Source: an uncultured Bacteroidota bacterium (GTDB lineage Bacteria; Bacteroidota; Ignavibacteria; UBA10030; UBA8401). From it: a stretch of DNA of 64,000 nt. Each line of letters opens with the position of its first letter. The first letter of the stretch is position 1. Below the pieces are notes generated by a model that saw only the letters and a program-made list of their open reading frames with translations, did no database searches and was not told the origin of the DNA. This document shows, one piece after another, positions 9,326 to 47,413 of the stretch. The stretch covers positions 247,363-311,362 of the forward strand of contig CAVYWA010000014.1 of the NCBI GenBank assembly GCA_963772165.1. Reading direction: 5' to 3'. The position numbers were made by a program, and so were the translations under genes.

Positions 9326-9444
9326 CAACAACAGTGCCGCTTTTACTGACAGGCCCCACCCGTTGTCCCTCCTCTAACAGGGGAGCGAAATGTTTTTGCG
9401 CCGAAAGTGAGGAGAAGAAATATAGTGCTCGATTTTAGGAACGG

Positions 9445-10255: not shown

Positions 10256-10402
10256 TCATTTGATCTCATCCGGTTCACAGAGCAATAATATAAACATAAC
10301 AAGCCGGTCGTATATTTGCGCGCAGTAAGTGCGACGGAGCCGCTAAAGTCCACTTCGTGAATTCTCCTGCGACTGCCTTATTTCTCATTTGCAAACTATG
10401 AA

Positions 10403-23832: not shown

Positions 23833-25206
23833 GTGCGACCTATGGAACAATATAGCAAAGATCGGTCAAATATTGTTGCAAGACTTGAACGCCTTCCACT
23901 TTCTTGGGTACATAGGAGGTTGCTTTTGGTTCATGGATTCGGTTGGCTGTTTGATGCAATGGATGTCGGCATTATAACATTTATAATAGTCGTTTTAGCA
24001 AGAGATTGGAACTTGCCAACCAATCAACTTGGCCTAATCGCGAGTGCAAGTATGGCCGGCATGTTTATTGGCGGAATAGCTTCTGGAATTGTGGCTGACT
24101 ATTGGGGACGGAAAAAAGTATTCCAAATTACTTTGCTGATATTTGCGATTGCAACCTTGTTGTGTGCCACTGCCCAAAATGTCAGTTCAATGATTATTTT
24201 TAGATTTTTCGTGGGCATTGGGCTGGGCGGTGAGTTACCAGTTGTCTCATCTCTTCTCAGTGAATTCATGCCGAGTAAGTATCGTGGTCGATATATCGTT
24301 CTTTTGGAAAGTTTTTGGGCATATGGTTGGCTCATTGCTGCGATCGTTGCATTTCTTGTTATTCCAGCATATGGTTGGCGGAGTGCTTTTATCATCGGTG
24401 CGATCCCTGCTTTCTATGTCTGGATTGTTCGACGAAAATTACCCGAATCTCCGCGTTGGCTGTATAGTAAAGAACGCTATTCGGAGGCGGAAAATGTAAT
24501 TGTCGCAATGGAAAAAGAAACGGAAAAACGCAAAAAAATATCTTTACCAATTATTGAAAGAGGTGTTGAACCAGTCCACAAATACTCATCGAAGTTTCCT
24601 TTTACTGAGCTTTGGAATAAGACTCACCGAAAGAGCACAATAATGCTCTGGATATTATGGTTCGGAATATCCTTCGGCTACTATGGAATTTTTGTTTGGC
24701 TTCCAACATTGCTTGTTAAGGAAGGTTATTCGATGGTCAACTCCTTTTACTATATTATTTGGATTACTCTTGCTCAAATCCCCGGATATTTTAGTGCATC
24801 GTACCTCGTAGAACGTGCAGGACGAAAGCCGGTCATCACAGTCTATTTGTTACTGTCTGCGATCTCCGCCTACTTCTTCGGCGAGGCATCAACCAAGGAA
24901 GGGATACTGATCTGCGCAACACTAATGTCCTTCTTTAACTTGGGTGCTTGGGGAGCTGTTTATGCCTACACACCGGAGCAATATCCTACACGAGCTCGAG
25001 CAACAGGTGCTGGTGCCGCCGCTTCTTTTGGTCGAATCGGAGGATTTTTCGCGCCGATTGTAGTGGGCGTTCTCCTTCCATTAGTTGGCCGTGATGGCGT
25101 ATTCACTTTGAACGCGGCGTTGCTATGTATAGGTGCAGTGGCGGTTACTACTCTGGGGGTAGAAACTAAAGATAAATCTCTTGAAGAAGCATCGCAGGAG
25201 AGTTAA
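23833..25206 (+). CDS. MFS transporter (sugar-porter/NiaP-like niacin transporter family)
   Basis: The 457 aa ORF has 12 predicted TM segments and the motifs GRKKV and PESPRWL. Confidence 0.8.
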   Translation: MRPMEQYSKDRSNIVARLERLPLSWVHRRLLLVHGFGWLFDAMDVGIITFIIVVLARDWNLPTNQLGLIASASMAGMFIGGIASGIVADYWGRKKVFQITLLIFAIATLLCATAQNVSSMIIFRFFVGIGLGGELPVVSSLLSEFMPSKYRGRYIVLLESFWAYGWLIAAIVAFLVIPAYGWRSAFIIGAIPAFYVWIVRRKLPESPRWLYSKERYSEAENVIVAMEKETEKRKKISLPIIERGVEPVHKYSSKFPFTELWNKTHRKSTIMLWILWFGISFGYYGIFVWLPTLLVKEGYSMVNSFYYIIWITLAQIPGYFSASYLVERAGRKPVITVYLLLSAISAYFFGEASTKEGILICATLMSFFNLGAWGAVYAYTPEQYPTRARATGAGAAASFGRIGGFFAPIVVGVLLPLVGRDGVFTLNAALLCIGAVAVTTLGVETKDKSLEEASQES

Positions 25207-25210
25207 AAAC

Positions 25211-26485
25211 ATGAAAGAAAAACAGCGGTCTTACGGTACAGTGAAAAAGAGTTACCCAGTAACTACTATCCCTAAATTTCATTGGTTGGGGGTGGAGTTC
25301 ACTGCCCATTCCAAGCCGATGATAGTTTTATTTTGGTTTATTACAATTTCCCTCACTCTTTTCTTTGTTGGGAGCTTTGCAACAAAGGTATACTCATCTA
25401 TTCGAACACCGCCATTACCGCCTCCTTCCATATGTGTTCTCTTACCTGATCCTGCCAGCTTTTCTGACGGTGCATTTTATCAGGATGGCGTCGTCCAAAA
25501 AAGAGGGTTCACCAAAGCCGAAGATGATGCGGATAAGCTGTCCAACCGTCTCCGTGTTCAATATATATATATGAGACGAGAAGTCTCAGCTGACACACTT
25601 CTCAATCAAATGAAAATGGAGTATGCCCAATCCGGCGCAACTTATTTTGTAATGACCATGAGTAGTAAGATCGAAGCAATTCGTTCTCATTTCATAAACT
25701 GGCATAACGATTGTGTCCAAATGGGTGTGCGAGAGCCAATATTGATTGCGACAGTAGCAAGTGCTCCTGATTTGGCTGACGGATCTGGAGGAATACTGCG
25801 TTGGTATGTTAGATCGCAGGAGGAAAGTGCTGCACTCGCTGAATACCTGAGTTGGAAGGAAGGTATAATGAACGCGGGTGTATTTTTCATTACTCGCCAC
25901 GTTGGGCAAACGGATGACGAATATGGCAAAGGAGGAATGGAGACATTTCGAGAGCGATTCATCAATGGTCTTGGCGGTAAAATGGTCGATCCTTATTGTA
26001 CTACTGCTGGAACAGCTAAATCCAATGTTTCAGAGTTTCTCGCAAAAGTCAAGAGAGCTCGACTGAATTCAAACAATACCGGAGTGTTCATTGTTGGTTA
26101 TGGAGATATGGTCAGAGAAGTTTTAAATGAACTTTTAAAGCAAGGATTTACAGGCCCGATAGCTTGTGCTTCAACGCTGACTGAACCGGATTGGCAGCCT
26201 AAAGAACGATCTGCGGACAATAGGATAGTGACGGTTTTGCCAAGATTGGCAAACCCACAAACAAGACTTGAAGTAGACGACCGAAATGTTGTATTCTTTT
26301 TCGCGAAGGAAGCATTATTTCGCGTGTTGGAGCTAACAGCGACCGATGCTAATTCCAAAACCTTCGTGGAACGCTGGAAAACTGAATCAAAGAAATATCT
26401 TAATCAAGAATTTTTGGCGAATGGCGATTGTGCTGTGCAATTAGACGTAGTCGGTTCGGAGGAATGGAGATGGATCGAGCACTAA
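25211..26485 (+). CDS. Membrane-anchored hypothetical protein with a periplasmic-binding-protein-like domain
   Basis: The ATG at 25211 follows the upstream stop. A single N-terminal TM helix is followed by an alpha/beta region loosely resembling type-1 PBP folds. The 3' end overlaps the pncA-like gene. Confidence 0.35.
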   Translation: MKEKQRSYGTVKKSYPVTTIPKFHWLGVEFTAHSKPMIVLFWFITISLTLFFVGSFATKVYSSIRTPPLPPPSICVLLPDPASFSDGAFYQDGVVQKRGFTKAEDDADKLSNRLRVQYIYMRREVSADTLLNQMKMEYAQSGATYFVMTMSSKIEAIRSHFINWHNDCVQMGVREPILIATVASAPDLADGSGGILRWYVRSQEESAALAEYLSWKEGIMNAGVFFITRHVGQTDDEYGKGGMETFRERFINGLGGKMVDPYCTTAGTAKSNVSEFLAKVKRARLNSNNTGVFIVGYGDMVREVLNELLKQGFTGPIACASTLTEPDWQPKERSADNRIVTVLPRLANPQTRLEVDDRNVVFFFAKEALFRVLELTATDANSKTFVERWKTESKKYLNQEFLANGDCAVQLDVVGSEEWRWIEH

Positions 26486-27672: not shown

Positions 27673-29343
27673 ATGAATATTTTTTACCGTTTCAAATGCT
27701 TTACAGTTTTGGTAGGCCTTGGGGCATGCATGATTTTTCCTGGATGCAGCTCTTCTAACAATCTGCTCAACTATGACCAAGAGCTTGTTAAATTTCTAGG
27801 TCTCGACCAAGACGGCTACGAAGCGACGGCTCATCCATTCACGCGCGATATCATAGGTCTTATTCCCCCAGACATGCTGGATTCATCTAATGTTAGATTT
27901 CGGTATGTCGATTCAGATGATGGCCCGCAAAACGTTAAATTTAGTGATTCAACATTCAGTAATACAAATTTTGGTTTAAGTTTTTTGTCCATTCTAGGCG
28001 TGCACTTAAATAGCAAAAGTGTAATCAATGTTCAATTCAGCTTTGGAAAAGCATACTTTTTTTCTGGATTTCAGCCATCTAATTTTTCACCGAAATTCTG
28101 CTTAAACAATACTGTTCGAAGTGCTCTGTGGATAGATCGATGGAAGCTTTCGGTCACTGCAAAAAGCGGGCACTCGGATTCCCTTAAATTAAGCCTAGAT
28201 TCTCTGAAAAAGAATTTACCTTCCCTTACAGCTAGCTTTACGAACGGAGACAGCAGTCAATTTACAGTTACATTCCCGCCAGGTTTTTATGCTTTTAAAA
28301 GGCCTGATCCTAGAACCAAGCCTACGTTCACAAGCTTGCCATTCACAACAAAGGATATACCAGATTATGATGAGTTCGATTACCAGTCGGGACCATTGCA
28401 TAATTCGCAGGGTGATACAATTCTAACAGGCAAGAATTTCACAATACGTTGTCAGATCGGGAGTAAATTCGATCCGTCACTTGACTCACTTTCTATATCT
28501 CTTAATTCGATGCCAATAAATAATTCAGATGGGGTAATGCAAGCAAAAACCCTTAACTTAGACACCTGCGGTTGCAGCACTGTGACCTTGTGTGAATTGG
28601 ATATTCAGGGTTTTACCCCGATGCGGCGGTCGATCAATAATGCGCTTAGATCCCATTTGTACCTGAAACTTCTAGATCCTACGTTACCCCGCGCAGAAAT
28701 AACCAGCCCCACTAAACAGACAGAATATATCGCTAAAGATTCTCTGCTTCTTCAATCTCTTGGATTTAAAATTCAGAGTAATAGCTATAACATCGTTTCT
28801 ATTACCATCACAGCAAATGAGATTGGAAAGAATGGTAGTGGAAAGAAATTCGTAATTGCCAGCAAGCTTGTAAACTTACCACCCTCTATCAGTGCTACCC
28901 AAGACTCAATTCAATTTAATAATGTCGATCAGTTTGTGGAGGGACATGAGTATCAAATATCAGGTGAGGTTCAGGACCAGGATCACAATAGTTACCCAAT
29001 TGTTAATTCAAAATTTTTAGTTGTCAAAAAAGAATTTCCGATTATTGTGCCCAGCTTTGATCTGAGCACAATCATCATCAAATCAGATTCAGATGAACTT
29101 GCACTTGATGGGATTGTAATACCAGATCCTGCTCGCATAACCGCTGTTGTACTGAGAGCTGGAGATGCAACCGTCGATTCTTCAAGCTATGATCTCCCGG
29201 ATACGGATAAAATAAATTTGATGACGATGTTTCCCCGGTTAAAGTTGTCACAGGATGTCTTTTTAAAAAATAGAAGTTTACAAATGACATTCTATGCATA
29301 TACACCTTGGCACAGTAAGGTATTAGTCAACCCCACACGATAA
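27673..29343 (+). CDS. Hypothetical lipoprotein (lipobox ..IFPGC)
   Basis: The 556 aa ORF has a signal peptide with Cys after ..MIFPG. It is AT-rich and Ser/Asn/Thr-rich. Confidence 0.5.
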   Translation: MNIFYRFKCFTVLVGLGACMIFPGCSSSNNLLNYDQELVKFLGLDQDGYEATAHPFTRDIIGLIPPDMLDSSNVRFRYVDSDDGPQNVKFSDSTFSNTNFGLSFLSILGVHLNSKSVINVQFSFGKAYFFSGFQPSNFSPKFCLNNTVRSALWIDRWKLSVTAKSGHSDSLKLSLDSLKKNLPSLTASFTNGDSSQFTVTFPPGFYAFKRPDPRTKPTFTSLPFTTKDIPDYDEFDYQSGPLHNSQGDTILTGKNFTIRCQIGSKFDPSLDSLSISLNSMPINNSDGVMQAKTLNLDTCGCSTVTLCELDIQGFTPMRRSINNALRSHLYLKLLDPTLPRAEITSPTKQTEYIAKDSLLLQSLGFKIQSNSYNIVSITITANEIGKNGSGKKFVIASKLVNLPPSISATQDSIQFNNVDQFVEGHEYQISGEVQDQDHNSYPIVNSKFLVVKKEFPIIVPSFDLSTIIIKSDSDELALDGIVIPDPARITAVVLRAGDATVDSSSYDLPDTDKINLMTMFPRLKLSQDVFLKNRSLQMTFYAYTPWHSKVLVNPTR

Positions 29344-29896: not shown

Positions 29897-31192
29897 ATGA
29901 AAAACGCCTTAGCTTTGTTCATAAACATTTTTCTAATGTCCCTCTGTCTTAATGCTCAAGCACAATTTCAACGTCTTTCGATTTTGCCCCAAGCCAACAT
30001 AATAATAACTGGTAGTCAACCAGCCAAGGTTAAAGTACTCAGCATTGATTATTACAGAGACGCGCCCAAAAGCACGGATACTGTTTCTGGAGTGAAATAT
30101 AATCAAGTGTATTCTACTGGTGAAATAATTATTAAAATCAATGGAAAAGTCACAGCCAGGACGTTTCAGTCATTGGTTGAGCCCGATGATTCTCTGATCC
30201 TCATAGAGCCAGCGTTTGCAGGTGAAGCTTGCATAAAACTAAACAAATCTAATCCCGAAACTAAGACTATTAAAAACATTGAACTTGAAGTAAAGACACA
30301 TACTGAAATTGGAAACATACCTGATGATAGGTGTGTTCAACAAACATCAATAATATTTCATAATTGGGGTCAAAATATATCGCAAGAAGAGTATTGGAAT
30401 AGAGCAAAGTGTTTAGATATTCTCCAAAAGAGTGGGCAATTGTCTACAGATAATAATGGCATCCTGTCACACGCATCAATGAACATTATGAATCTAGTTT
30501 ACAATAGATATGATTCCATTCCGCGTAATAACAAGACTTTTAAAGTTTTAATTGATAGGGGCTTCATTCTTGTCGATGAAAAGGGAGAACTTACAAAAGA
30601 GAGCAGGGAACGATTAAAGCAGTTTTATTATTATAAGTATGCTCTTTCTGATGCAAAGCGATTGGATACATTATGGCGTGAATATTCGGCAATAGGAACT
30701 AACCATAGAGCTGACTCCTTGACAGTCTCAAATAATGCAGAAGCCGCTTATTATAACAATGACTCTGTCTTAACAACTCTAGATTCGCGGAATAAAGAAC
30801 TCAGAGATACTTTGATACGCGATGCTAGATATGTTTTAATGGTAGCCTGGAAGCCGGTTGATTTCAATAAATATGTGCAGTGCGGTTCGTATCAATCAAA
30901 TAAGGGACTATTTACCTCTCATCCTCTGTTCCTAACCTCGGACTATGATATGGAGCAAATAGGAAAGAAGATTCATTTCGACACGTTATCTGATTCAGAA
31001 CGCAAAACAAGACTTGAACAATTATTAGGGTTACCTCCTACTGCAGACAACGACCTTTTTTGTGAGTTTTGGGTTAGAGAAGGAGATGTATTTCGGCCTA
31101 CGATTGATTCGACTCTCAATTTTAGCTACGCGGCCTCTAGGGTAAGTGAAGCATACCTAGAAGAGTTCGCTACTTTTTCAGATAATTCGTAG
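29897..31192 (+). CDS. Hypothetical secreted protein
   Basis: The 431 aa ORF has a signal peptide reading MKNALALFINIFLMSLCLNAQA. It is AT-rich. Confidence 0.45.
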   Translation: MKNALALFINIFLMSLCLNAQAQFQRLSILPQANIIITGSQPAKVKVLSIDYYRDAPKSTDTVSGVKYNQVYSTGEIIIKINGKVTARTFQSLVEPDDSLILIEPAFAGEACIKLNKSNPETKTIKNIELEVKTHTEIGNIPDDRCVQQTSIIFHNWGQNISQEEYWNRAKCLDILQKSGQLSTDNNGILSHASMNIMNLVYNRYDSIPRNNKTFKVLIDRGFILVDEKGELTKESRERLKQFYYYKYALSDAKRLDTLWREYSAIGTNHRADSLTVSNNAEAAYYNNDSVLTTLDSRNKELRDTLIRDARYVLMVAWKPVDFNKYVQCGSYQSNKGLFTSHPLFLTSDYDMEQIGKKIHFDTLSDSERKTRLEQLLGLPPTADNDLFCEFWVREGDVFRPTIDSTLNFSYAASRVSEAYLEEFATFSDNS

Positions 31193-32162
31193 AAAACGAA
31201 GTGATTTTGAATCAATTTCCATTCACTGGATTGGGGTACACCTGGGATTACAATCCTAAAAACACTAGTCATATCGGAGTTACTGAATTCGTGTTAAACG
31301 AGAAAAGGAAAGTCTATGTCAGACAAACATTGAGTACTTAATGACTATTTAAATGCTCTTGCCAAAAGGCTGTCAAGCGATAGAAGATGACGAGAAAAAC
31401 GGTAGGGTATAAGATCGCCGAATGACACAATGTTTCCGTTGCTTACGGATGCAGCCTAACAAGAAGGGAAATCTATTCATATTATCTGTTTTCTTTGTCA
31501 GTCAATACTGCTGCCTTTCTAACGATATTAAAGCCACCGAGCCCCCCATCTTTTCTCTAAATTTTCCCTTGAATGAGTGGTGGATGTCTCCTAATTGGTG
31601 ATTGCAGCAGCCCTATTAAATCAGGACTCGCAGCGGTAAATGCGAATTATTACGCGACTTTGTTACAATTTGGTTACATGAGCGTTCATTTCATGCAAAA
31701 GCCGGTGTAATTACAGGGGCTTTATGTTGATCCGACGGTCTTAGAAGGCGAGTGCTCTATTCTGCTGAGTCAATTAAGCGAAATAGCTCTTCTGGAAATC
31801 TCGTTGGCATTTATGATCGGACCTTATTAGTAAACAGATTTCGTAGCTCAAAATCTAACCAGAATTCCCCCAGTGCAATGCAAAGAAACTTTACCGGCCA
31901 TTCATTCTAAGTTCTATTCCCGACTGAAGGACATTCTAATAACCTCATGCAATGTCTGTTTTCCTTCCAAAAAATACCTGATTTATGCTATTGCATGTTT
32001 CTGGCCAAAAGAATATGATTTGGACATTCAATTAACCTTTTGAATTTGTCGTTGACAGCATTAGGTCGAGAATAAAGTGCATAGGGCCTCAGTTTGTGCG
32101 GTTGCAACCATCCTTCCAATTTCCTACATTTGTGCATTATTTCAGGCGGAAAAAGCGGTCTT

Positions 32163-34953
32163 ATGAACACCCACTCCCCGGGGCAATCCAAAACGAATAA
32201 TTCATATCGAGTTACCGAAGCTCAAACGCGGTTTAGCCTTATTGATCCCGAGCTTCAAAAAGCTGGATGGAATCTCTCTGATCGAACGCAAGTTAAATTC
32301 GAGATTCCGGTTGACGGGTATGACGGCTCGGGCGGTGGCGGATTCACCGATTACACTTTGTATAGAACAAATGGCGAAATCCTCGCGGTGGTAGAAGCAA
32401 AGCGAACAAGCCGTGACCCGCGAGAAGGGGAGAAACAGGTTCTTGAATACGTTACTGCGATAGAGAAGAAGCAGAGCTTCCGTCCATTCGCATTCATGGC
32501 GAATGGTGAGGATGTATTCTTCTGGGAGAGTGATACCACAGCCCAACGCCACGTTGCGGGATTCTTCTCGCGTGAGAATCTTGAGCGCCTTCTTTTCTTA
32601 AAGCAAAATAAAAAGCCGCTCAACTCAGTCCTTCCGAATAAAACGATCATCGACCGGAGCTACCAGGTCGAAGCGATTCGTAGAATCTCCGAAGCAGTTG
32701 AAAAGAAAAAACGAAAAGCTCTCCTCGTGATGGCGACGGGGACCGGCAAGACCCGCACGATCATGGCGTTGATCGATGTCTTCCTGCGGGCTCACGCCGC
32801 GCAGAAGGTTCTCTTTCTTGCCGACAGGGACGCTCTTGTCGACCAGGCGCTCAGCGACGGCATCAAGGCCCATCTCCCTCACGAATCGCGGACGAGGATA
32901 CGAACCTATTCGATCGACACAACCGCACGACTCTACGTCTCCACGCTTCAAACCCTCGAGATGTGTTACGATAAATTCACTCCAGCAGATTTCGATCTCG
33001 TCATAACTGACGAATGCCACCGTTCGATTTACAATAAATTCACCGACGTGCTGGCTTATTTCGATGCTGTGCACATCGGACTGACCGCGACGCCTGCGGA
33101 ATTCATCGACCGAGATACGTTCAAGTTTTTTGATTGCGAGGGGAGAGTGCCGACATTTCTCTATCCGTTTGATAAGGCAGTGGAGGAGAAGTATCTGGTA
33201 GACAAAAATGTTTATGCTGCACAGACAAAGTTTCAAAGGGAAGGAATAAAAGGGGCGAATCTCAGCGAAGTAGATAAAGAGACCCTTCGCAGCCGCGGGA
33301 TCGATCCCGATGATCTCGACTACGAAGGGACCGATCTTGAACGCAAGGTGACAAACAAGGACACATTGCGGAGTCAGTGGGAAGAGTTTATGGATGTCTG
33401 CTACAAAGACTCCACAGGCCAGCTTCCAGGGAAATCGATTATTTTTGCCATCACACACAATCATGCGATGCGTTTGTCTGAAACTTTCGACGAGATGTAT
33501 CCCGAGTATGAAGGGAAGCTCGTTCAGGTAATTGACTCAAAGATGGAACGTGCCAAGACGCTTCTTGACGATTTCAAGAAGCAGAATTTTCCTCGCATTG
33601 CAATTTCTGTAGACATGCTCGATACAGGCGTGGACGTTCCCGAAGTGGTCAACCTTGCCTTCATGAAGCCGGTCAATTCGCAGATCAAATTCTGGCAGAT
33701 GATTGGACGTGGCACGAGGAACCAGGAGGCCTGCAGGCACTATGAGTGGCTGCCGAACAGAAATAAAGAAGAATTCCTAATCGTTGATTATTGGGAGAAC
33801 TTCGAGCACTTCAATATGATGCCGGCTCAGGAGGAGGGAGTTTCGCAAATCCCGGTTCTGGTGACAATTTTCAACACGCGATTAGATAAGCTTCGCATCT
33901 TTCAGGGAAATCAGACATTCCCCGATGCGCTGCGGGTCATTCGCGACCTGAGAAGTGACATCGCGCGGATCCCGCTACAATCCTTTTCGGTGAAGAAAGT
34001 ATTCAACGAAGTGCGTGAAGCGTGGGAAGACGAGTTCTGGAAGTACTCTCACCGAGCAAAAGATAGAATTTCTGCGGATGAAAGTTGGACCGCTTCTGCG
34101 GTATGTTCCCAACGTGCGTCCGGTTGAGGCATCTTTATAAGTAAGATGGAGCGCTGTGGACTTGCACACCTCCAGCACAAAGATCTCGCTTCTTATATAA
34201 CCTCAATTCGCGAAGATGTAGGGTTACTTCCGACGACATTGGGCGAAGTGCAATCGAGGCAGAAATACGTCGATCAGCTTATGTCGAACGATTTCTGGGT
34301 GAACCACACGCTTGCAACAATTGACGAAGCGAAAGAGGCGCTCTCCCCAGTAATGAAGTTCAAACGCGAGCGACCGTCGTTCGTTTTCGAACTGGGGCTT
34401 GACGATGTGATTGCAATGCGCAAGTGGGTCGTGGTAAGAAAAGATTCTCAAAAGATGTATATCGAAGAGTACCGAAAACTAGTAGAAGCGAAGATCGAGA
34501 AGATCGCTGCCGAGCATCCGACAGTAAAGAAGATTAAGAATAAGGTTGAGATTGACAATGAGGATATGATACGATTGGAGGAGACGCTCGAAGCGGAGCT
34601 TGGAACGGACGAGATTAGCCTCGACGATGAGAATATGCTGAAGGCGTTTGGTGTGCGCGTTGGAAGCTTGGTGGACTTCCTTAAACATGTGCTCGGACTT
34701 GAAGCGCTCCCCTCGTACGAAACTGTTGTGAGGAAGGCATTCGATGCCTTCATCCTTGAGCACAACTACAATTCAGATCAGTCAAGGTTCCTGCGTGTAA
34801 TGCAGAGTGTGTTTTTGCAGCGGAGAAAAGCTGCAGCTTGCGGATCTGTATGAAGAGCCGTTTACGAACTTCGGTGCGAATGCGGTAGAGAAACTGTTTG
34901 CGGGAAATGAAATTACTGAACTAATTGAGTTGGCAAAGAGATTGGCGCCGTAA
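32163..34953 (+). pseudogene. hsdR: Type I restriction enzyme R subunit (HsdR), disrupted by an in-frame TGA at 34125-34127 and a frameshift near 34801-34853
   Basis: The N-terminal region has the HsdR_N motif (TEAQTRFSLIDPELQKAGW). The helicase region reads MATGTGKT..VITDECHRS. After the in-frame stop the same frame continues into the EcoEI_R_C-like domain (34146-34853). The final ~30 codons (..EEPFTNFGANAVEKLFAGNEITELIELAKRLAP) lie in a third frame. Confidence 0.7.
34862..34884 (+). repeat. Left copy of the 23-bp imperfect direct repeat (tttacgaacttcggtgcgaatg) at the hsdR 3' end
   Basis: It matches 38082-38104 (tttacgaactttggtgcgaatg) at 22 of 23 positions. Both copies encode ..PFTNFGAN.. 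Confidence 0.7.
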
Positions 34954-34999
34954 AATCCTGCATGACACAATTTGAATTAACATTAAGGAGGAAACTAAT

Positions 35000-35371
35000 A
35001 TGGGAAGTTCTGGAACAGGTAAGCTAAGTGATTATTCGGAAAAGACTGAAAAGAAAGGGGGCGGGAAGGCTTCTGGTGCCAGCGGCAAAGATCCTTGTGA
35101 TAACGCATTTGCAACTACACTGGAAGATGTTGATCGATGTGAGTACTTTAAAAATCACAAGTCGGTTCCGCCTATTGGCACAGAAGTCATCGTCTCTCTT
35201 AAAGGCCGCCTTTTGGTTGATACATTGGCCGGCGAGACTATTGGCTACTTACCCACGGAGTATAACTATTTGGCTGGATGTATGAAGAAAAAACGTTCAT
35301 ATGGAGGTCAGGTCTCTTCAGCTACCACGAAACCTGTAATTAGAGTTAGGGTTGACATCGGACCACAATGA
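35000..35371 (+). CDS. Small hypothetical protein with Gly/Lys-rich N-terminus (first gene of the 4-gene cassette)
   Basis: The 123 aa ORF has a strong AAGGAGG RBS 7 nt upstream. Its N-terminus reads MGSSGTGKLSDYSEKTEKKGGGKASGASGK.., and it has a ~80-aa C-terminal domain. Confidence 0.45.
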   Translation: MGSSGTGKLSDYSEKTEKKGGGKASGASGKDPCDNAFATTLEDVDRCEYFKNHKSVPPIGTEVIVSLKGRLLVDTLAGETIGYLPTEYNYLAGCMKKKRSYGGQVSSATTKPVIRVRVDIGPQ

Positions 35372-35372
35372 C

Positions 35373-36740
35373 ATGACGGAAAAGTCTTCGGCAATCTTGC
35401 TCATCGGAGAGACCTGCCTTGATGTGACCCTTTTTCCTGCAGGCACATTGGAAAGGAAGCTTAGGCTCGGCGGAGTGGTACATGCTGCTCGATGTCTTTG
35501 GGGACTTGGGGCTTCATATCAACTGGCATACTTGGCACCAAGTTACTTGTTTCGCCAAATCGAAGACTACGCCCTAGCCCACGGCTGTTCCAACGTCTCA
35601 CAGATCGCGACAATTGAGGGTGCACCCTGCGTTATGCTTATTGAAGAAGCCACTGAAGCGGGTAGTCAGGGATATGACTATCTACTACGAGACGAATTGA
35701 AGTGTGATATCGATACACCAAGATTGGAAAGCATAGTCACAAAAACGGAAATATCTGACATCTTGGTGTTTCCGGGCAACTATGATCTCGCCAAGGTGCT
35801 CGTTGCATGTTCTAAATCAAAGGCTCGGATACATATTGATATCGCAAACGGTGTCAGTAATCTCAGTGTCCTGAAAAAGTTTGTGAGAAAATTTGACACG
35901 GTCATTACTTCCACATCATCAGAAATCTTCTTGGACAAATTTAAGGGGAGTCCCGAGCGCCTTTGCCAAGAAGTTCTTGATATCTATGGTGAGTCTTTCT
36001 TATTGAAAGAGAATCGTGGAGGCTCAAGATTTTACTCGAGCAGAGCACAGAAGAAGCCCATCGAAATCGGGGCTCAGTTGAGACCCATTGTCCACTCTGT
36101 TGGAGTGGGAGATGCGTTCGACGCAGCATTTGTTAATCTTAGGCAGACGCGCGATGACGAATCTGCCCTTACTTGTGCTTCATGGATTGCTGCAGAATAC
36201 GCGGCAACTACGTTCATGGACGACTTTACAGATGGCTGTAGTCGTGTTTTGGCATTGGAACGAGACGAGATCTTATCTCTTCCAGGTGTTTCTCTTCCAT
36301 GGGAAGTCCGTAGCCAATTCAATATTTATATTGCTGCTCCTGATTTTGACTATCTGGATAGAACACACATCGATCGATTAGTCAGTTGTCTCAAGTATCA
36401 CAATTTCAATCCGAGGCTTCCTGTTCGAGAACATGGACAAAGCAGGCCAAACACAGCGAGTCATGAGAAATACGAAATGTGTGGCGCTGATTTGTCATTG
36501 CTCGATGAATGCGATATGTTAGTTGCGCTAAACTTGGGGAATGATCCAGGTACATTGATTGAAATTGGCTTAGCCAAAGGGGCTGGTAAGCCAGTAGTGG
36601 TTTATGATCCATTTGAGAAAGCTAAGAATCTAATGTTAACTCATCTGCCAGACTTCGTGTCATCGAGTCTTGACGGAATAGTGACTAAAGTGTTTGAGAT
36701 AATATCAACGATCAGGCATGCCGCATCACAGAAAAAATAG
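35373..36740 (+). CDS. PfkB-family kinase fused to a nucleoside 2-deoxyribosyltransferase-like (NDT/Rossmann) C-terminal domain
   Basis: The N-terminal half reads ..LLIGETCLD..GGVVHAARCLWGLG.. and ..VGVGDAFDAAFV.. (the PfkB GAGD-type signature). The C-terminal half reads ..NIYIAAPDF..CDMLVALNLGNDPGTLIEIGLAKGAGKPVVVYDP.., an NDT-like DxGTxxExG..GKP pattern. The ATG at 35373 lies 2 nt after the upstream stop. Confidence 0.55.
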   Translation: MTEKSSAILLIGETCLDVTLFPAGTLERKLRLGGVVHAARCLWGLGASYQLAYLAPSYLFRQIEDYALAHGCSNVSQIATIEGAPCVMLIEEATEAGSQGYDYLLRDELKCDIDTPRLESIVTKTEISDILVFPGNYDLAKVLVACSKSKARIHIDIANGVSNLSVLKKFVRKFDTVITSTSSEIFLDKFKGSPERLCQEVLDIYGESFLLKENRGGSRFYSSRAQKKPIEIGAQLRPIVHSVGVGDAFDAAFVNLRQTRDDESALTCASWIAAEYAATTFMDDFTDGCSRVLALERDEILSLPGVSLPWEVRSQFNIYIAAPDFDYLDRTHIDRLVSCLKYHNFNPRLPVREHGQSRPNTASHEKYEMCGADLSLLDECDMLVALNLGNDPGTLIEIGLAKGAGKPVVVYDPFEKAKNLMLTHLPDFVSSSLDGIVTKVFEIISTIRHAASQKK

Positions 36741-37347
36741 ATCCGTTCTTTTAGCCTCCGGGGGCCTTGACTCGACTACATTGGCATATTGGTTATGTCG
36801 AAAAAAAATTGAATTCCTCCCTGTGTTTGTAAACTATGGACAACATTGTGCAAAGACGGAGTACGAAACACTCAGAGAAGTGCTTCCGAAACATTACTCA
36901 AGACACATCCATGTCGTTGATATCTCTGATGTCTACAAGCGCTCGAAATCGCTTTTGATTCGTGAGCCAAACCTGTGGAAAGATCGAGTGAGCTACCGCG
37001 AATTGTATCTTCCTTATCGCAACTTGCTCATTCTGTCCACGGGCGCGGCATTTGCACAGTCCGTAGGTTGCAAGTGTCTCTATGCGGCATTTATCAACAG
37101 CAACCATGCGATTGAAATTGATTGTTCTGTCGAGTTCTTTGGCAGATTGGATTCCATGCTATCGAGCTATGGGTCTGTCAAACTGTTCATGCCATTTCGC
37201 ACAAAATCGAAATATCAGGTAGCAAAGATGGGTATCTCGCTTCGTGCGCCTATTGGGAAAACGTTCTCATGTCAAGTTTCATCGGTCACTCCGTGCGGCG
37301 CCTGTCCAAATTGTGTTGATCGGTTACAGGCACTTCGTCAACTTTGA
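36718..37347 (+). CDS. QueC-like PP-loop ATPase (7-cyano-7-deazaguanine synthase family)
   Basis: The sequence has VLLASGGLDSTT (the SGGxDS PP-loop). A C-terminal Cys cluster reads C-x8-C-x2-C-x2-C (FSCQVSSVTPCGACPNC), matching the QueC Zn site. It overlaps the upstream gene by 23 nt. Confidence 0.7.
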   Translation: MPHHRKNRSVLLASGGLDSTTLAYWLCRKKIEFLPVFVNYGQHCAKTEYETLREVLPKHYSRHIHVVDISDVYKRSKSLLIREPNLWKDRVSYRELYLPYRNLLILSTGAAFAQSVGCKCLYAAFINSNHAIEIDCSVEFFGRLDSMLSSYGSVKLFMPFRTKSKYQVAKMGISLRAPIGKTFSCQVSSVTPCGACPNCVDRLQALRQL

Positions 37348-37376
37348 TATCATGTAGCATCATTTTGAGAATAGTC

Positions 37377-38069
37377 ATGAACCTAATCGTTTTCGCGCGT
37401 AAACTTGCTGATTACCTTAACAAGCTTCCAGATTTTGTAATTTCTAAGCACAACGGTTACGACAAAGAGAGTATGGGTGCGATAATAGCAGATGCGGTAT
37501 TGCAGGCAGGCCTTAATTACCGGACCGTTGTTGCTCCGAGAGTCAAGAGAATTCTCAACGATTATCCAGATGCTGCGACAACTTCAGGTTTCCTAGTAAC
37601 AATCGACAGGTTCGGATGCGATGTAATCCTTCGATGGAATCACCCGGAAAAGCCGAGAAGAGTTCAATCTCTGGCTTTATTGCTTGAAAACGAACAAGTT
37701 GAGACCAAGGATCAATTGCGCGATTGGCTTAAAAATGACGTTAACAGTGAAAAGTTGAGAGCTATCCCGGGAATTGGACCGAAGACCATCGATTATCTGA
37801 AGAACTTATCCGGACTTTCAGCAATTGCCATAGACCGACACATACGTAGGTTAGCCTTCGAAGCAGGTATAATCATTACTGATTACCGTACGTTGCGAAA
37901 GGTGGTCGAGTTTACTGCGGATCTTCTTGATGTTCCGCAAAATGATCCTGACCATTCAATATGGCTCTACATGTCCAAGCCTTCACGATCATATTGTAAG
38001 AAGACCTCAGAATTTTCAGAGCAACCAGCATTCTCTCGCGAAAGAAATGGCAAAGCTTGTTTAATTTGA
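37377..38069 (+). CDS. HhH-GPD superfamily DNA-glycosylase-like protein (OGG/EndoIII-like); an alternative TTG start at 37344 overlaps the queC-like stop
   Basis: The sequence reads ..LRAIPGIGPKTIDYLKNLSGLSAIAIDRHIRRLAFEAG.., a helix-hairpin-helix followed by a Gly/Pro-rich loop and a conserved Asp. Confidence 0.55.
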   Translation: MNLIVFARKLADYLNKLPDFVISKHNGYDKESMGAIIADAVLQAGLNYRTVVAPRVKRILNDYPDAATTSGFLVTIDRFGCDVILRWNHPEKPRRVQSLALLLENEQVETKDQLRDWLKNDVNSEKLRAIPGIGPKTIDYLKNLSGLSAIAIDRHIRRLAFEAGIIITDYRTLRKVVEFTADLLDVPQNDPDHSIWLYMSKPSRSYCKKTSEFSEQPAFSRERNGKACLI

Positions 38070-38081
38070 AGCGAGGACCAT

Positions 38082-38104
38082 TTACGAACTTTGGTGCGAA
38101 TGTT
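38082..38104 (+). repeat. Right copy of the 23-bp imperfect direct repeat flanking the cassette
   Basis: See 34862-34884. It lies 13 bp after the glycosylase-like stop. Confidence 0.7.
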
Positions 38105-38253
38105 GCCGATGAGCTGTGTGGTGAACATGAGATATAAGATTTTATTGCGTTGGAGAAGTTGTTAACTTTGCCGGCGTTTTTTTGTATATTCAGGATGGAT
38201 TCTATCTAGACAACGTGATGAGTCTTCCCTATTAATAGTTTACGCATTTATCC

Positions 38254-43391: not shown

Positions 43392-44600
43392 TTGACCCGA
43401 GGTATAGCACTTGCGTTTCCAAGTCCAACTGAGGCAGCGAGATTGAAGAAATCCCTATATACACCATTCTCGGACACTTTATTGGATCCTATGTTGATAG
43501 ACAAGAAAGAAGCCGAATTGCTATTGGAACTGATCACAACGCCATTTATCGGTTGTATGAACACACAAGAGTTATCTATTACATATAGGACCAGGTCCTT
43601 TTGGTTGCAATCAAGGCCTGAAGCAAAGAGACTTCTTCTGGATACTCTGGAGCTTGACCACAATTCGCTGTTTGATGAGTTTCTTTCAGCTACAGCGTCA
43701 GTTCTATCACCTGAAGATATTTTAGAAATAAGTCATTCGAAACCCAAACTCTTACCTTTCTTTATTCTCAGCAATCCCAAGTTGGCAACCTCGCCTCAGT
43801 TATGGAAAACTTCAGTAGATGTGCAACGTGAGATTTTTGATGTCCTAAAAGAGTCCAAGGACAGCAGTTCTATTGATTGGAATGCAGTGGTGACAGCTAT
43901 TTTTGCTGCAGGTGCGGAACATCTGAGTGTGGTCATTGTAGAGAGAATTGGTTTGCTTCCATTTCTAGGTATTCTCGACAAAATTAAATTTTCTCCAGCG
44001 GATTTTTCACAACAATGGAAGAGGGCCACTGCTTCGAAAGATTCTCTTGTATGTAAATGGCTTGAGATCAGCAATTCTCCTTCTCAGAATATCCTTACTC
44101 TGTTTGCTCTGTCAAGTGAGCCACGTTCATGTATTTTTGACGCGTCAAACCTCGCTCCTTGGGTACGTTTAGCAGATTCCTTGGAATCCTTCAATTCAAG
44201 CATCAGAATCAGAATAGCGGCATTCTTGTTGGCATTGGGCCTCTACAATCAGGATCAAGAAACATATAAACTCGTAACACGCAGCTTCCAAATTGTCCAT
44301 GATGCAGCTGAGAAGGATAACCTCCCTTACGACTCATGGCGCCTTTTGGAAGGGTTGGTTCCTGAGTTGTCTTGGACAAAGAACTGGGACAAGTGCGAAC
44401 GCCTTATACGCGGGGTGGTGGAACGTTACTCGAACTGGAAGTGGCCCATATCTTCGTTTGTTCAAGTTACAAATCGAGAGGATACTCTTAAACGAATTCT
44501 CAAACGGTGTATGAAGAACCCCGATGGAGTCCAATTTGTGCAGCTACTCAAAAAAGAACAGTCCGGTGGACTTAAGCGAGTTATCAAAGAGGTAGAATAA
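43392..44600 (+). CDS. Hypothetical alpha-helical protein
   Basis: The 402 aa ORF has no recognisable motif. It lies between the decayed GTPase region and hsdM. Confidence 0.4.
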   Translation: MTRGIALAFPSPTEAARLKKSLYTPFSDTLLDPMLIDKKEAELLLELITTPFIGCMNTQELSITYRTRSFWLQSRPEAKRLLLDTLELDHNSLFDEFLSATASVLSPEDILEISHSKPKLLPFFILSNPKLATSPQLWKTSVDVQREIFDVLKESKDSSSIDWNAVVTAIFAAGAEHLSVVIVERIGLLPFLGILDKIKFSPADFSQQWKRATASKDSLVCKWLEISNSPSQNILTLFALSSEPRSCIFDASNLAPWVRLADSLESFNSSIRIRIAAFLLALGLYNQDQETYKLVTRSFQIVHDAAEKDNLPYDSWRLLEGLVPELSWTKNWDKCERLIRGVVERYSNWKWPISSFVQVTNREDTLKRILKRCMKNPDGVQFVQLLKKEQSGGLKRVIKEVE

Positions 44601-44785: not shown

Positions 44786-46286
44786 ATGCTCACCGACCCA
44801 CAACTTAAATCTAAAGTCGACGCTCTCTGGGACCGCTTCTGGTCCGGCGGCATCGCCAATCCTATTACTGCCATCGAGCAGATGTCCTATCTCATATTTC
44901 TCAAGCGGCTGGAGGATATGGACAATGCCCGTGCTGCGGGCGCGAAGAGAAAGAACGAATTATATCGTTCTATTTTCCACGGGAGCAAAGACTGTCGGTG
45001 GTCTGTACTGGAGTCAATTGCCTGGCGATCAGATGCTAAAGCATGTACGTGACAAGGTCTTCGACTTCCTGCGCGAACTTGGGAGCAACACAAGCTCGTT
45101 TACCCAGCACATGCAGGATGCCGTCTTCATCATCCCGAAGGCATCGCTGCTGCAGGAGGGGGTGAAGATCATCGACGATATGCACATTGCCGAGCAAAAC
45201 ATCGATGTGCAGGGAGATCTCTACGAATATCTGCTAATGCAGCTCACCACTGCGGGGAAGAACGGACAGTTCCGGACGCCAAGGCACATCATCCGGATGA
45301 TGGTGAAGCTGGTAAACCCGAAAGTGGGCGACCGTATCTGCGACCCGGCTGCGGGCACGGGCGGGTTTCTAGTGAACGCGTACGAGCACATACTCGAATC
45401 GAACACATCCCCCGACGTTCTTGAATACGACGACGAAGGGAAACCGCATCACTTAATCGGCGACAAGATCGCGGATAAGAAGCTGCTGAAGTTTCTGAAG
45501 AGCCAGGCGTTGACAGGTTACGACTTCGACGCGACGATGACGCGCATCGGCGCAATGAATCTGATGCTGCACGGGATCGACAATCCGAATTTTCGGTATA
45601 CAGATACACTCTCAAAGTCGTTTACCGAGAAGGGACAATACGACGTAATCCTCGCCAACCCGCCATTCAAGGGATCGATCGACAAGAGCGACATCAACGA
45701 ACGCTTCTCAACGAAGACGACGAAAACGGAATTGCTTTTTATTGAATTGATGTACGACCTCTTGGTGACCGGCGGACGTTGCGGCGTGATCGTGCCCGAC
45801 GGTGTATTGTTCGGGACGAGCAACGCACACATTGCAACGCGGCGGATTCTTGCTGACAAGTGCAAGCTCGAAGGCGTTGTCTCGATGCCATCTGGAGTAT
45901 TCAAGCCCTACGCCGGAGTCTCGACTGCGGTGCTCGTGTTCCAGAAAGGCGGCACCACGGACAATGTCTGGTTTTATGACATGAAGGCGGATGGTTTCTC
46001 GCTGGATGATAGGCGACAGAAGATAGCCGAGAACGATATTCCCGACATCGTTAAGCATTGGGGAGATCGAGGCAAATCGAAAATCGGCAATCGTAAATCG
46101 AAAATGTTTGCCGTTCCCGCCGACGAAATCCGTTCCAACAAATACGACCTATCCATTTCACGATACAAGCTAATCGAGCACAAGAAAATTGAATACGAGA
46201 AGCCGGAGGCGACGATGAAGAAGTTACTGGAGTTGGAGAGAAAAATCGGAAACGATATTGAATCAATTCAAAGAATGCTTAAATGA
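44786..46286 (+). pseudogene. hsdM: Type I R-M methyltransferase subunit HsdM, frameshifted near 44990-45020
   Basis: The HsdM_N segment (MLTDPQLKSKVDALWDRFWSGGIANPITAIEQMSYLIFLKRLED..RWS) is in one frame. The methylase core (..DPAAGTGGFL..ANPPFKG..) is in another frame (44925-46286). Confidence 0.7.
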
Positions 46287-47413
46287 CCCAGCGCAAGTTG
46301 CAACTTGGGAGCCTTGTATCAATCGTAAAAGGTAAAAAACACGATGAGGTTTCTAACATTCCGTCGCTTGGGTCCAAGAGGTATATTCAAATCGATGATC
46401 TCAGGAACAATTCCAATTTGAAGTATACGACCAATTCTGGAGTGGAAGTCGGCATTGACGACGTGATTATTGCCTGGGATGGTGCAAATGCTGGTACAAT
46501 CGGATTTGGATTGAATGGATATATTGGAAGTACTCTTGCTCGACTAAGGATTATTGATGCTCAAGTTTATTCAAAATTCTTGGGATGGTGCCTGCGCGGT
46601 CAATCAGTTTCAATAAGGGAGAAATGTACCGGCGCAACAATTCCTCATGTCAACAAGTCTTTTCTCCAATCTATCGATGTACGCCTTCCCCCTCTTCCCA
46701 TCCAAAAACAAATCGCCGAAATATTAGAGAAAGCCGATACAACTCGTGAGATGCGTCTGGAGGCTAATGAACTCACCCAACAGTTTTTACATTCGGCCTT
46801 TTTGGAGATGTTCGGCGATGGGACGCACAAGCGTGTAAAGTTGAGAGATGTTTGTCGAATCATTACGGATGGCACGCACATCACTCCAAAGTATCTAAAT
46901 CAGGGAGTACCTTTTGTCTCGGTGAAGGATGTAAGGAGTAAGAAAATTGATTTCAATAATGTAAAGTATATCTCTCGTGATGAGCATCTTTTCATTACAA
47001 AAAGGTGTAGACCAGAAAAGGGGGATATCCTTTATACAAAAGTTGGTGCGACATTTGGTAACGCTGTACTGGTTGATCTAGATACTGAATTTAGTATCTT
47101 CGTGAGTCTTGCATTACTGAAACCTAAGTTTGATATAATTGAGCCACACTTTTTGCATTACATGATGAACACTGATTTTGTGAAGAGCCAGGCACGGCAA
47201 CGGATAAAAGGAATTGCTGTTCCTGACTTACATTTGATCGAGATCAAAGACTTTGATATCTACCTGCCTGAGATGGCTGAACAGCGAAAATTTCTCGGCT
47301 TAGTCGAGAAGGTTGAATTGCTCCGTGTTAAACAGCGAGAATCGGAGAAAGAGCTAAACAATCTCTTCAACAGCCTTATGCAGAGAGCGTTTCGAGGGGA
47401 GTTGGTGGAGTGA
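46283..47413 (+). CDS. hsdS: Type I R-M specificity subunit HsdS
   Basis: The 376 aa ORF has a start overlapping the hsdM stop (ATGA). It has two TRD-like halves and the conserved central and C-terminal coiled regions. Confidence 0.7.
   Translation: MTQRKLQLGSLVSIVKGKKHDEVSNIPSLGSKRYIQIDDLRNNSNLKYTTNSGVEVGIDDVIIAWDGANAGTIGFGLNGYIGSTLARLRIIDAQVYSKFLGWCLRGQSVSIREKCTGATIPHVNKSFLQSIDVRLPPLPIQKQIAEILEKADTTREMRLEANELTQQFLHSAFLEMFGDGTHKRVKLRDVCRIITDGTHITPKYLNQGVPFVSVKDVRSKKIDFNNVKYISRDEHLFITKRCRPEKGDILYTKVGATFGNAVLVDLDTEFSIFVSLALLKPKFDIIEPHFLHYMMNTDFVKSQARQRIKGIAVPDLHLIEIKDFDIYLPEMAEQRKFLGLVEKVELLRVKQRESEKELNNLFNSLMQRAFRGELVE

Follow-up and report, generated by a model that had tools for sequence, protein, structure and literature searches.

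The DNA analyzed here, called the window throughout, is a stretch of 64,000 nucleotides (nt) from an uncultured Bacteroidota bacterium (GTDB lineage Bacteria; Bacteroidota; Ignavibacteria; UBA10030; UBA8401; GenBank assembly GCA_963772165.1, contig CAVYWA010000014.1, positions 247,363 to 311,362 of the forward strand). Between a frameshifted hsdR gene and intact hsdM and hsdS genes, it carries a cassette of four co-directional, intact open reading frames (ORFs) on the + strand at 35000-38069, which we designate g1 to g4. We propose that the cassette is a self-contained, horizontally mobile and most likely anti-phage module of the QueC-family protein-deazaguanylation class, and we put the probability of this reading at roughly 0.55. 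The four genes are as follows.

35000-35371, + strand: g1, 123 amino acids (aa); its start is the first ATG downstream of an in-frame TGA at 34973-34975
35373-36740, + strand: g2, 455 aa, a PfkB-like domain and a nucleoside 2-deoxyribosyltransferase (NDT)-like domain; its ATG lies 2 nt past the g1 stop
36718-37347, + strand: g3, 209 aa, QueC family; it overlaps g2 by 23 nt
37377-38069, + strand: g4, 230 aa, predicted HhH-GPD fold; an alternative TTG start lies at 37344

A preliminary description of this DNA had treated the four genes as one operon-like unit, and the four intact, compactly arranged + strand ORFs agree with that description; we regard it as virtually certain that g1 to g4 form a single functional unit. 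The same description had proposed translational coupling through overlaps of 20, 23, and 4 nt. The tight packing and the 23-nt overlap stand, while the 20- and 4-nt overlaps are doubtful, as both depend on the choice of start codon. A TTG start for g2 at 35352, which would give the 20-nt overlap, was rejected because homolog alignments begin at the ATG at 35373. For g4, the TTG at 37344 (4-nt overlap) is less likely than the ATG at 37377, which leaves a 29-nt gap after g3, since homologs begin with an equivalent MN...; these include a 230-aa database protein (P0121) that is 98% identical to g4. The g1 gene is preceded by a Shine-Dalgarno sequence, AAGGAGG, at 34985-34991. A simple consensus scan of the cassette for promoter- and terminator-like sites found none above the level of shuffled sequence.

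The evidence that carries our reading lies at the extreme N terminus of g1, an invariant MGSSGTGKLSDY. One genome per species was scanned, giving 80 loci (83 with three further copies from Pontibacter), and the g1 homolog opened with MGS[ST]G[ST]Gx[FL][ST]DY in all 80, once from a GTG start. Because an upstream stop sits only a few codons away in many loci, the g1 start codon is fixed. In the family alignment, M1, G2, S3, G5, D11, and Y12 are invariant, even though they fall within a disordered, low-complexity tail. A profile built from the family found 312 representatives in 1.84 billion proteins, and nearly all of the matches were 110 to 140 aa long, with profile position 1 coinciding with residue 1. 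This N terminus can be compared with two recently described systems. The type IV CBASS protein Cap9 ligates 7-carboxy-7-deazaguanine (CDG) to Gly2 of a CD-NTase whose N terminus reads M(G/S)G(G/S)GG (Wassarman et al. 2025, bioRxiv 10.1101/2025.04.06.647259). QatB has a disordered tail starting MGTS, a G2D substitution abolishes defense, and a short conserved stretch further along is also needed (Gao et al. 2026, PMC13279940). Protein deazaguanylation was found in 2025 for type IV CBASS and inferred in 2026 for Qat, and the authors of both studies call the later fate of the tagged protein open. Judged from the alignment, the g1 N terminus is the substrate signature seen in the CD-NTase of type IV CBASS and in QatB, the partners in the two known systems of protein deazaguanylation by QueC-family enzymes. 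By analogy, Gly2, exposed by removal of the initiator Met, is the predicted acceptor, and g1 would show every feature that those authors list for an NDG substrate except demonstrated binding. The nucleobase-conjugation idea of the preliminary description gains strong new support, by the same analogy, from this invariant MGSxGxG start.

Behind the tail, g1 appears to be a folded protein. In an AlphaFold2 model, residues 1 to 30 form a disordered Gly/Ser-rich segment with a predicted local distance difference test (pLDDT) score below 50, and residues 31 to 123 form a beta domain with a pLDDT of about 96. While g1 itself had no Pfam match, 11 of 28 relatives gave weak matches to HIRAN, the sole recurring Pfam family among them. 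On the model and these matches, residues 31 to 123 are best described as a HIRAN-like beta domain. The HIRAN domain of HLTF has a 3'-OH-binding stretch that looks shortened in g1, and, in contrast to the HIRAN domains of HLTF, Rad5, and lp_0118, the g1 domain is free-standing and follows an N-terminal acceptor tail. What had been described as a small Gly-rich protein is real, and it resolves into a Gly2 tail joined to a HIRAN-like domain.

The proposed ligase is g3. It matched PF06508 with 107.5 bits (cut-off, 22; E value, 8.6e-31) and the QueC equivalog model TIGR00364 with 86.4 bits, below the cut-off of 150.3. The earlier QueC-like call is therefore upheld at the level of the family, with a score under the cut-off for canonical QueC. 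The PADLOC QueC (Cap9) model was matched at an E value of 8.5e-26. The top PDB match was likewise Cap9 (9nto_B; E value, 3e-9 with the single sequence and 1.9e-19 with a 40-sequence profile), ahead of the QueC structures 2pg3 and 3bl5, and no QatC chain was among the PDB matches. Across 80 sequences, g3 has the motifs SGGLDS, YGQHCxxxE, PYR, FINSNHAxEIDC, and PFxxxxK and the zinc motif SCQx6CGxCxNCxD. It keeps the PP-loop, the zinc motif, and the Arg and Asp residues through which Cap9 contacts the base, while the canonical QueC motifs YxQxHxxE, VPxRN, and YPDC are altered to YGQHCxxxE, PYR, and EIDC. These data make g3 a QueC-superfamily PP-loop enzyme and a putative ATP-dependent ligase, for which the comparison indicates homology to Cap9 rather than orthology.

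The g2 protein combines two domains. Its C-terminal part matched the NDT family PF05014 with 53.2 bits (cut-off, 28.8; E value, 4e-14) over residues 325 to 420 of the 462-aa ORF, in keeping with the NDT call of the preliminary description. The domain (aa 318 to 455) contains the motifs IYIAAPDF, YHNFxPRxPVxExGQ, and DPGTLIEIG, the last of which carries the nucleophile Glu. A g2 family profile retrieved the NDT structure 6evs (E value, 3.6e-7) with this Glu in register with the nucleophile, and the residue is invariant in the family alignment. The same profile also touches the cytidine monophosphate (CMP) N-glycosidases MilB and BcmB. In the N-terminal domain (about aa 1 to 300), HSVGVGD and KENRGGSR are invariant, and the invariant GVGD lends some weak support to the earlier assignment of this domain to the PfkB kinases. 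Scores against known kinases were weak: 11.2 bits against PF00294 (cut-off, 25.8; E value, 0.22), with weak matches in 9 of 22 relatives, an iolC/PfkB-type match at an E value of 7e-4, and a family-profile match to the ribokinase 3iq0 at an E value of 0.029. Other annotators label the domain ribokinase-family. We describe g2, from its motifs and profile matches, as a divergent PfkB/ribokinase-like domain fused to an NDT-like domain and as a putative transferase or hydrolase. More than 900 relatives of g2 were present in the databases. Separately, matches on plasmids of Moraxella osloensis and Methylocystis parvus (H10-H12), labeled "PfkB family carbohydrate kinase," align at about 30% identity to g2 residues 240 to 411 only, that is, to the end of the kinase-like domain and part of the NDT domain; these proteins may represent a related but different fusion family.

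For g4, all HhH matches in single-sequence domain scans were below threshold. The AlphaFold2 model, made from a 50-sequence alignment, reached a pLDDT of 91, and G132, G134, K136, D153, R154, and H155 were invariant in those 50 sequences (GIGPK136T and D153RH), with K136 and D153 aligning with the catalytic Lys and Asp of endonuclease III. The PADLOC OGG model matched g4 at an E value of 2e-4 and matched 22 of 50 relatives (best E value, 7.8e-7); MagIII and EndoIII are as near to g4 as OGG is. The same fold also includes the queuosine-5'-phosphate glycosylase QNG1. The two-domain fold and the HhH motif with its Asp and Lys bear out the glycosylase-like call made before, and on the model g4 is a member of the HhH-GPD glycosylase superfamily, distantly similar to Cap11/OGG.

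The four genes travel together. Gene order was determined by BLAST of the six-frame ORFs of the 83 loci with the four window proteins, and the order g1-g2-g3-g4 on one strand was recovered with g1, g2, g3, and g4 present in 80, 83, 83, and 81 loci, respectively. The absent genes fall at contig ends, except for g4 in a Bacteroidaceae locus (L032). Hosts included Chloroflexota, Acidobacteriota, Planctomycetota, Bacteroidota, alpha-, beta-, gamma-, and deltaproteobacteria, Actinomycetes, TM6, and Verrucomicrobiota, and tblastn against plasmid records added Bacillus cereus and B. mycoides (Bacillota), Cupriavidus, Proteus, and Neotabrizicola. The set described from the window thus recurs across at least eight phyla, and all 80 of the 80 complete loci keep its order. 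An Anaerolineales metagenome-assembled genome (L004) contains a 2-kb piece that is 99.9 to 100% identical. No conserved fifth gene was found when 795 flanking proteins were clustered, the commonest family occurring in 11 loci. Culturable carriers are Proteus mirabilis, Cupriavidus necator NH9, Bacillus mycoides, B. cereus, Pontibacter korlensis, Pedobacter, and Flavobacterium.

The most instructive variant is that of Bacillus mycoides plasmid p509 (L088, 6121-8974), in which a NUDIX gene and g1 precede a single 658-aa PfkB-NDT-QueC fusion and there is no g4; it adjoins a Septu-like AAA ATPase and HNH pair. The fusion points to joint action of g2 and g3, and the lack of g4 here and in L032 indicates that g4 is accessory. 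In L032, a 471-aa protein follows g3 at 8996-10411, where g4 is missing; it had no PDB sequence match. A megablast search with the cassette and a distant blastn search with the Proteus copy found nothing in all complete genomes of Escherichia coli. A tblastn search of 50,697 phage records with g2 also found nothing, so the cassette does not belong to the usual gene content of phages; prophages of Rhodobacterales do carry it, however. In those Rhodobacterales (L042-L052, L056, and L061), the cassette stands among prophage genes for terminase gpA, a protease-capsid fusion, and a lambda-type tape measure protein, and this copy is a prophage moron.

The preliminary description had placed the cassette in a defense-gene setting, and copies elsewhere are indeed found in defense islands, integrative islands, and prophages. 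We surveyed the two nearest genes on each side at about 78 loci, counting PADLOC matches with an E value of 1e-8 or less as strong. Strong matches included dGTPase (10), AriA/NsnB/Gabija-like ATPases (8), AbiL (4), mad3 (3), Septu PtuAB (2), and AbiE (2), as well as a type I restriction endonuclease, HmaA, a CBASS cyclase, DISARM DrmD, BREX BrxH, and SRA-HNH. The commonest neighbor, an HD/HD_assoc dGTPase found at about 10 to 11 of the loci (E values down to 5e-141; for example, 5370-6503 in L009), lies at a median gap of about 110 nt, on either side and on either strand. This adjacency may reflect chance co-location in islands or a functional tie to guanine-nucleotide chemistry. The Cupriavidus copy sits between a Gabija-like pair and a double-stranded DNA nuclease, the Bacillus copy lies beside Septu-like genes, the Pontibacter and Proteus copies adjoin integrases and insertion sequence elements, and some copies are on megaplasmids. 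This patchy, mobile, and island-bound distribution fits a defense module better than a housekeeping salvage operon.

The surroundings of the cassette in the window comprise the following features.

32094-34953: hsdR, upstream of the cassette, in at least three reading-frame pieces (32094-34127, 34146-34853, and a tail at 34853-34953)
34859-34920, + strand: left repeat copy, the true 3' end of the frameshifted hsdR, encoding ...PFTNFGANAVEKLFAGNEI...
38079-38140, + strand: right repeat copy, encoding GPFTNFGANVADELCGEHEI and then a stop, an orphan HsdR C-terminal fragment directly after g4
44925-46286: hsdM, downstream of the cassette, intact
46283-47413: hsdS, downstream of the cassette, intact

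These coordinates confirm the location between hsdR and hsdMS that had been reported. The earlier statement that every other system in the island is inactivated was too strong, as hsdM and hsdS are intact. Imperfect direct repeats bracket the cassette. The two copies, each about 62 nt long, are about 74% identical (alignment of 34840-34960 with 38060-38180), and the outer limits first given for the unit, 34862 and 38104, fall inside them. Both copies encode the C-terminal peptide of HsdR (PFTNFGAN...), as PFTNFGANAVEKL... and as PFTNFGANVADEL..., the latter running to a stop, so that the 3' end of hsdR is duplicated around the cassette. This arrangement suggests recombination at hsdR 3' ends as the route by which the cassette was acquired.

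The hsdR gene is broken by at least two frame disruptions, and its indels differ among relatives (34048, 34131, 34471/34475, 34714, and 34826), which looks like real decay. Against three close relatives, the cassette had 0 to 2 indels, the hsdR segment 5 to 7, and the 7 kb downstream 68 to 69, and on these counts the flanks are apparently decaying and the cassette is not. Sequencing error was rejected as the source of the flank frameshifts because, within the same assemblies, the flanks have an indel density 10 to 20 times that of the cassette, and also because an Illumina-derived contig shares several of them.

Several other features were observed in the window. The region from 38254 to about 43300 is a heavily frameshifted system that shows 68 to 69 indels against the relatives (compare 13254-18085 in L084/L085). 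Its N terminus is a calcineurin-like phosphoesterase/metallophosphatase matching the NCBIfam DS8/DS9 antiphage models and PADLOC PDC-S60, and it is followed by fragments labeled GAAD, GASH, DO-GTPase1/2, and GAP1-N1 in relatives. A 285-aa ORF at 20724-21581 matched PADLOC SoFic (E value, 2.5e-90) only from profile position 77 onward and may be truncated at its N terminus. ORFs of 350 to 556 aa without a Pfam or PADLOC match lie in the island and around it, at 25181-26485, 27673-29343, 29897-31192, 43392-44600, 47719-48777, and 49041-50234 and are possible further island cargo; the two just upstream of hsdR fall in the lowest-GC stretch of the window (0.37 to 0.40).

How might the four proteins work together? 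In the scheme that we favor, we infer every chemical step, the defense phenotype, and the identity of the base. That the cassette is a defense system at all we consider likely. Loss of Met1 would leave Gly2 of g1 exposed on the tip of a flexible tail, some 30 residues long. The Cap9-like g3 would adenylate a carboxylated 7-deazaguanine-type base, presumably CDG from the host queuosine pathway, and link it through an amide to the Gly2 amine of g1. That g3 modifies Gly2 of g1 in some such way is, on the analogy with Cap9, a good bet, held with slightly less assurance than the defense role itself. The NDT domain of g2 would then stand in for Cap10, binding the tethered base and using its Glu nucleophile to put a ribosyl or deoxyribosyl group on the free N9. 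This part of the scheme is tentative, and as an analogy it is more apt to be wrong than right; we propose it because of established NDT enzymology, which proceeds through a Glu-linked (deoxy)ribosyl intermediate. NDT domains form N-glycosidic bonds at the N9 of purines, and glycosylases can break such bonds. The PfkB-like domain would phosphorylate the sugar or supply the donor, and the outcome would be a g1 protein linked to a nucleoside, a nucleotide, or a nucleic acid end. The HIRAN-like domain of g1 would sense or target DNA ends, and g4 would reverse or edit the glycosidic link, a role proposed for Cap11.

A more daring version of the last steps can be imagined. In it, the NDT domain would move a deoxyribosyl group from a nucleotide, or from a DNA 3' end held by the HIRAN-like domain, onto the g1-linked base; the resulting covalent protein-nucleotide or protein-DNA-end adduct would block phage replication or packaging, with the PfkB-like domain phosphorylating the sugar and g4 clearing the adduct from host DNA. 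We think this version improbable. If it were true, it would amount to defense by enzymatic protein-to-DNA crosslinking through a nucleobase.

Several observations weigh against the reading of the cassette as a protein-deazaguanylation defense module. The HIRAN-like domain of g1 scores below the Pfam threshold (PF08797). The PfkB call for g2 is weak by sequence, and the PfkB NxxE motif is not evident. Of the Tyr/Asp pair that recognizes the base in QueC and Cap9, the Tyr is not kept in g3, which has an invariant Glu133, a mostly conserved Ile134, and Asp135 there; with the Tyr replaced, the conjugated acid may not be CDG. The g4 gene is absent from two lineages (Bacillus and L032), and no obvious killing effector is encoded in the cassette. 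The link to defense islands is guilt by association, and some loci have housekeeping neighbors. Finally, the preliminary description had judged the unit to be under current selection; its low indel density agrees with this, but the substitutions against close relatives (synonymous to nonsynonymous, 5:5 to 2:9) are too few for dN/dS. Taken as a candidate, the module described earlier is nevertheless supported in nearly every respect that could be tested.

Other explanations account for parts of these data. It is unlikely, in our view, that the cassette makes a small molecule, either an antiviral nucleotide analog or a DNA modification. In such a pathway, g3 would act on a free base (converting CDG to 7-amido-7-deazaguanine [ADG], preQ0, or another amide), the NDT domain would form the 2'-deoxynucleoside, and the PfkB-like domain would form the 5'-monophosphate. 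The product would poison phage replication or mark DNA, g1 would be a DNA-end-binding accessory, and g4 would excise the product from DNA, as self-protection or as a restriction-like glycosylase. The order of base, nucleoside, and nucleotide is chemically natural for QueC, NDT, and kinase activities, g4 has a DNA-glycosylase fold with a catalytic Lys and Asp, a dGTPase recurs as a neighbor, and 7-deazaguanines are known as DNA modifications (PMC6884629). Such a pathway leaves unexplained, however, why g1 is obligatory and why its extreme N terminus is better conserved than the rest of the disordered tail. In addition, g3 scores under the equivalog cut-off for QueC and is closer to Cap9, which modifies a protein; nor do queD, queE, folE, or DpdA-like genes travel with the cassette.

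Housekeeping salvage of purines or of 7-deazapurines, the precursors of queuosine, has a precedent in print. Libby et al. (2026, PMC13329287) found that the QueC of "Cluster 4" in their sequence similarity network adjoins PF00294-PF05014 fusions in 237 of 266 cases (89%), which they read as purine salvage. NCBI labels the proteins "nucleoside 2-deoxyribosyltransferase" and "7-cyano-7-deazaguanine synthase," and QNG1, a queuine salvage enzyme, has the fold of g4. Against this, a salvage pathway has no need of a HIRAN-like protein or of a Gly2 tail that is invariant. The rarity of the g1 family, the patchy spread across phyla, and the variable flanks in islands, prophages, and megaplasmids, beside defense genes, also speak against a housekeeping operon, and we hold it to be a poor candidate.

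Equally doubtful is an abortive-infection or toxin module with the NDT-like domain as effector. That domain would resemble the NDT-like effectors of retrons and act as an N-glycosidase on nucleotides or NAD+; the modification state of g1, set by g3, would restrain it or switch it on, and g4 and the kinase-like domain would regulate it. NDT-like domains are known as toxic retron effectors, RcaT being an example (reviewed in PMC8632793); the nucleophile of the g2 domain is invariant, its profile touches MilB and BcmB, and the cassette encodes no other effector. The invariant kinase-type and glycosylase catalytic residues, on the other hand, suggest a multistep pathway rather than simple regulation. 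This explanation overlaps with the protein-deazaguanylation module that we prefer, differing from it in the output step only.

We find it barely credible that the cassette is a type IV CBASS, Qat, or Dpd system that has degenerated or been split, with parts elsewhere: the PADLOC accessory models of CBASS-IV for QueC and OGG do match g3 and g4, yet the conserved neighbors in 80 loci include no CD-NTase, TGT/DpdA, TatD, or QatA, only 1 of 38 loci has a nearby (and unrelated) CBASS cyclase, and the four-gene set is complete and constant by itself.

Should the proposed deazaguanylation module be real, QueC-type ligation would underlie a third, independent system, and one with the simplest conceivable substrate, a protein of 123 aa. 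Its NDT, sugar-kinase-like, and glycosylase partners would make the fate of the tagged protein readable, so that the question "what is NDG transferred to?" becomes testable. The cassette also corrects metabolic labels that are spreading ("7-cyano-7-deazaguanine synthase," "nucleoside 2-deoxyribosyltransferase," and "purine salvage"), and g1 and g4 are two unrecognized protein families for the catalog of defense genes.

In searches of the literature on PfkB, NDT, QueC, and phage, the study of Libby et al. was the only record found, and searches on HIRAN with QueC or deazaguanine gave nothing relevant. The Cluster 4 QueC proteins of that study are about 10 residues shorter than QueC and carry SGGxDS, YGQ(x)6E, and CH(x)5CxxCxGCxK (PMC13329287). 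They share with g3 the PfkB-NDT adjacency, SGGxDS, and the YGQ...E motif. The spacer in the latter is 6 residues in Cluster 4 and 5 in g3, and the printed Cys motif of Cluster 4 differs from the CQ(x)6CxxCxNCxD found in 79 of 80 g3 sequences. Judged by these features, g3 is likely the same as Cluster 4 or its sister. Libby et al. mention neither a g1-type Gly-tail protein nor an HhH-GPD gene, and neither of these has a Pfam model. The cassette had been called undescribed; g1, g4, and the four-gene set were not found in the literature, while the pairing of QueC with PfkB-NDT was already on record.

Neither PADLOC v2 nor NCBIfam r20 has a model for the cassette beyond generic QueC and OGG matches, and comparison with type IV CBASS, Qat, and Dpd places it in none of them, as the preliminary description had held for the known 7-deazaguanine immunity sets. 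Its further statements, that CD-NTase, TatD, and DpdA are lacking and that PfkB-NDT replaces the TGT-like enzyme, are borne out both in the cassette and in its conserved neighbors. With Dpd, the cassette shares 7-deazaguanine chemistry and a base-exchange enzyme in a defense setting. Dpd, however, has the TGT-like DpdA, DpdB, DpdC, and helicase and nuclease genes that the cassette lacks; neither the window cassette nor the flanking genes at 80 loci encode a DpdA, DpdB, or DpdC domain, and the QueC of the cassette is not a canonical preQ0 synthase.

QatABCD is closer. It is likewise a four-gene operon in defense islands, and it shares a QueC-family enzyme and a small partner with a disordered N terminus starting MG(T/S)S. 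QatC, however, is about 400 aa long, with extension domains and a remodeled base pocket, compared to 209 aa for g3, and g3 hardly resembles it in profile searches (PADLOC E value, 0.025; models, 0.014 to 0.025; NCBIfam QatC, 14 bits against a cut-off of 280). QatB is helical, unlike the HIRAN-like beta domain of g1, and the QatA ATPase and the QatD TatD nuclease are absent from the cassette and its conserved neighbors.

The likeness to type IV CBASS is the most extensive. Both have a short QueC-family ligase, Cap9 being the nearest solved relative of g3; an OGG/HhH-GPD protein (Cap11 and g4), which in CBASS is an accessory for NDG installation (Wassarman et al. 2025); a partner with a flexible N-terminal tail and a Met-Gly-(Ser/Gly)-rich start; and, beside the ligase, a second base-handling enzyme with a nucleophile for covalent catalysis. 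A reliance on host 7-deazaguanine precursors would be common to both, if the cassette works as we suggest. Wassarman et al. also pointed out that N9 is available "for subsequent addition of ribose." The differences are equally plain. Type IV CBASS has a CD-NTase, cyclic-nucleotide signaling, and a CBASS effector, and the cassette is without all three; no CD-NTase is present among its four proteins or as a conserved neighbor in 80 loci. The CBASS-IV-type acceptor motif is found in g1 (MGS[ST]G[ST]G), on a HIRAN-like protein of 123 aa rather than on a CD-NTase. No tRNA-guanine transglycosylase (TGT) domain occurs in the cassette or its conserved neighbors, and the slot of the TGT-like Cap10 is taken by the unrelated SLOG/flavodoxin-like fold of NDT, fused to a PfkB-like domain. 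In addition, g3 lacks the Tyr of the pair that binds the base in Cap9. The cassette is a probable third architecture of QueC-family N-terminal conjugation systems, and, by analogy, it would function like the ancillary module of type IV CBASS and like QatBC while being a member of neither.

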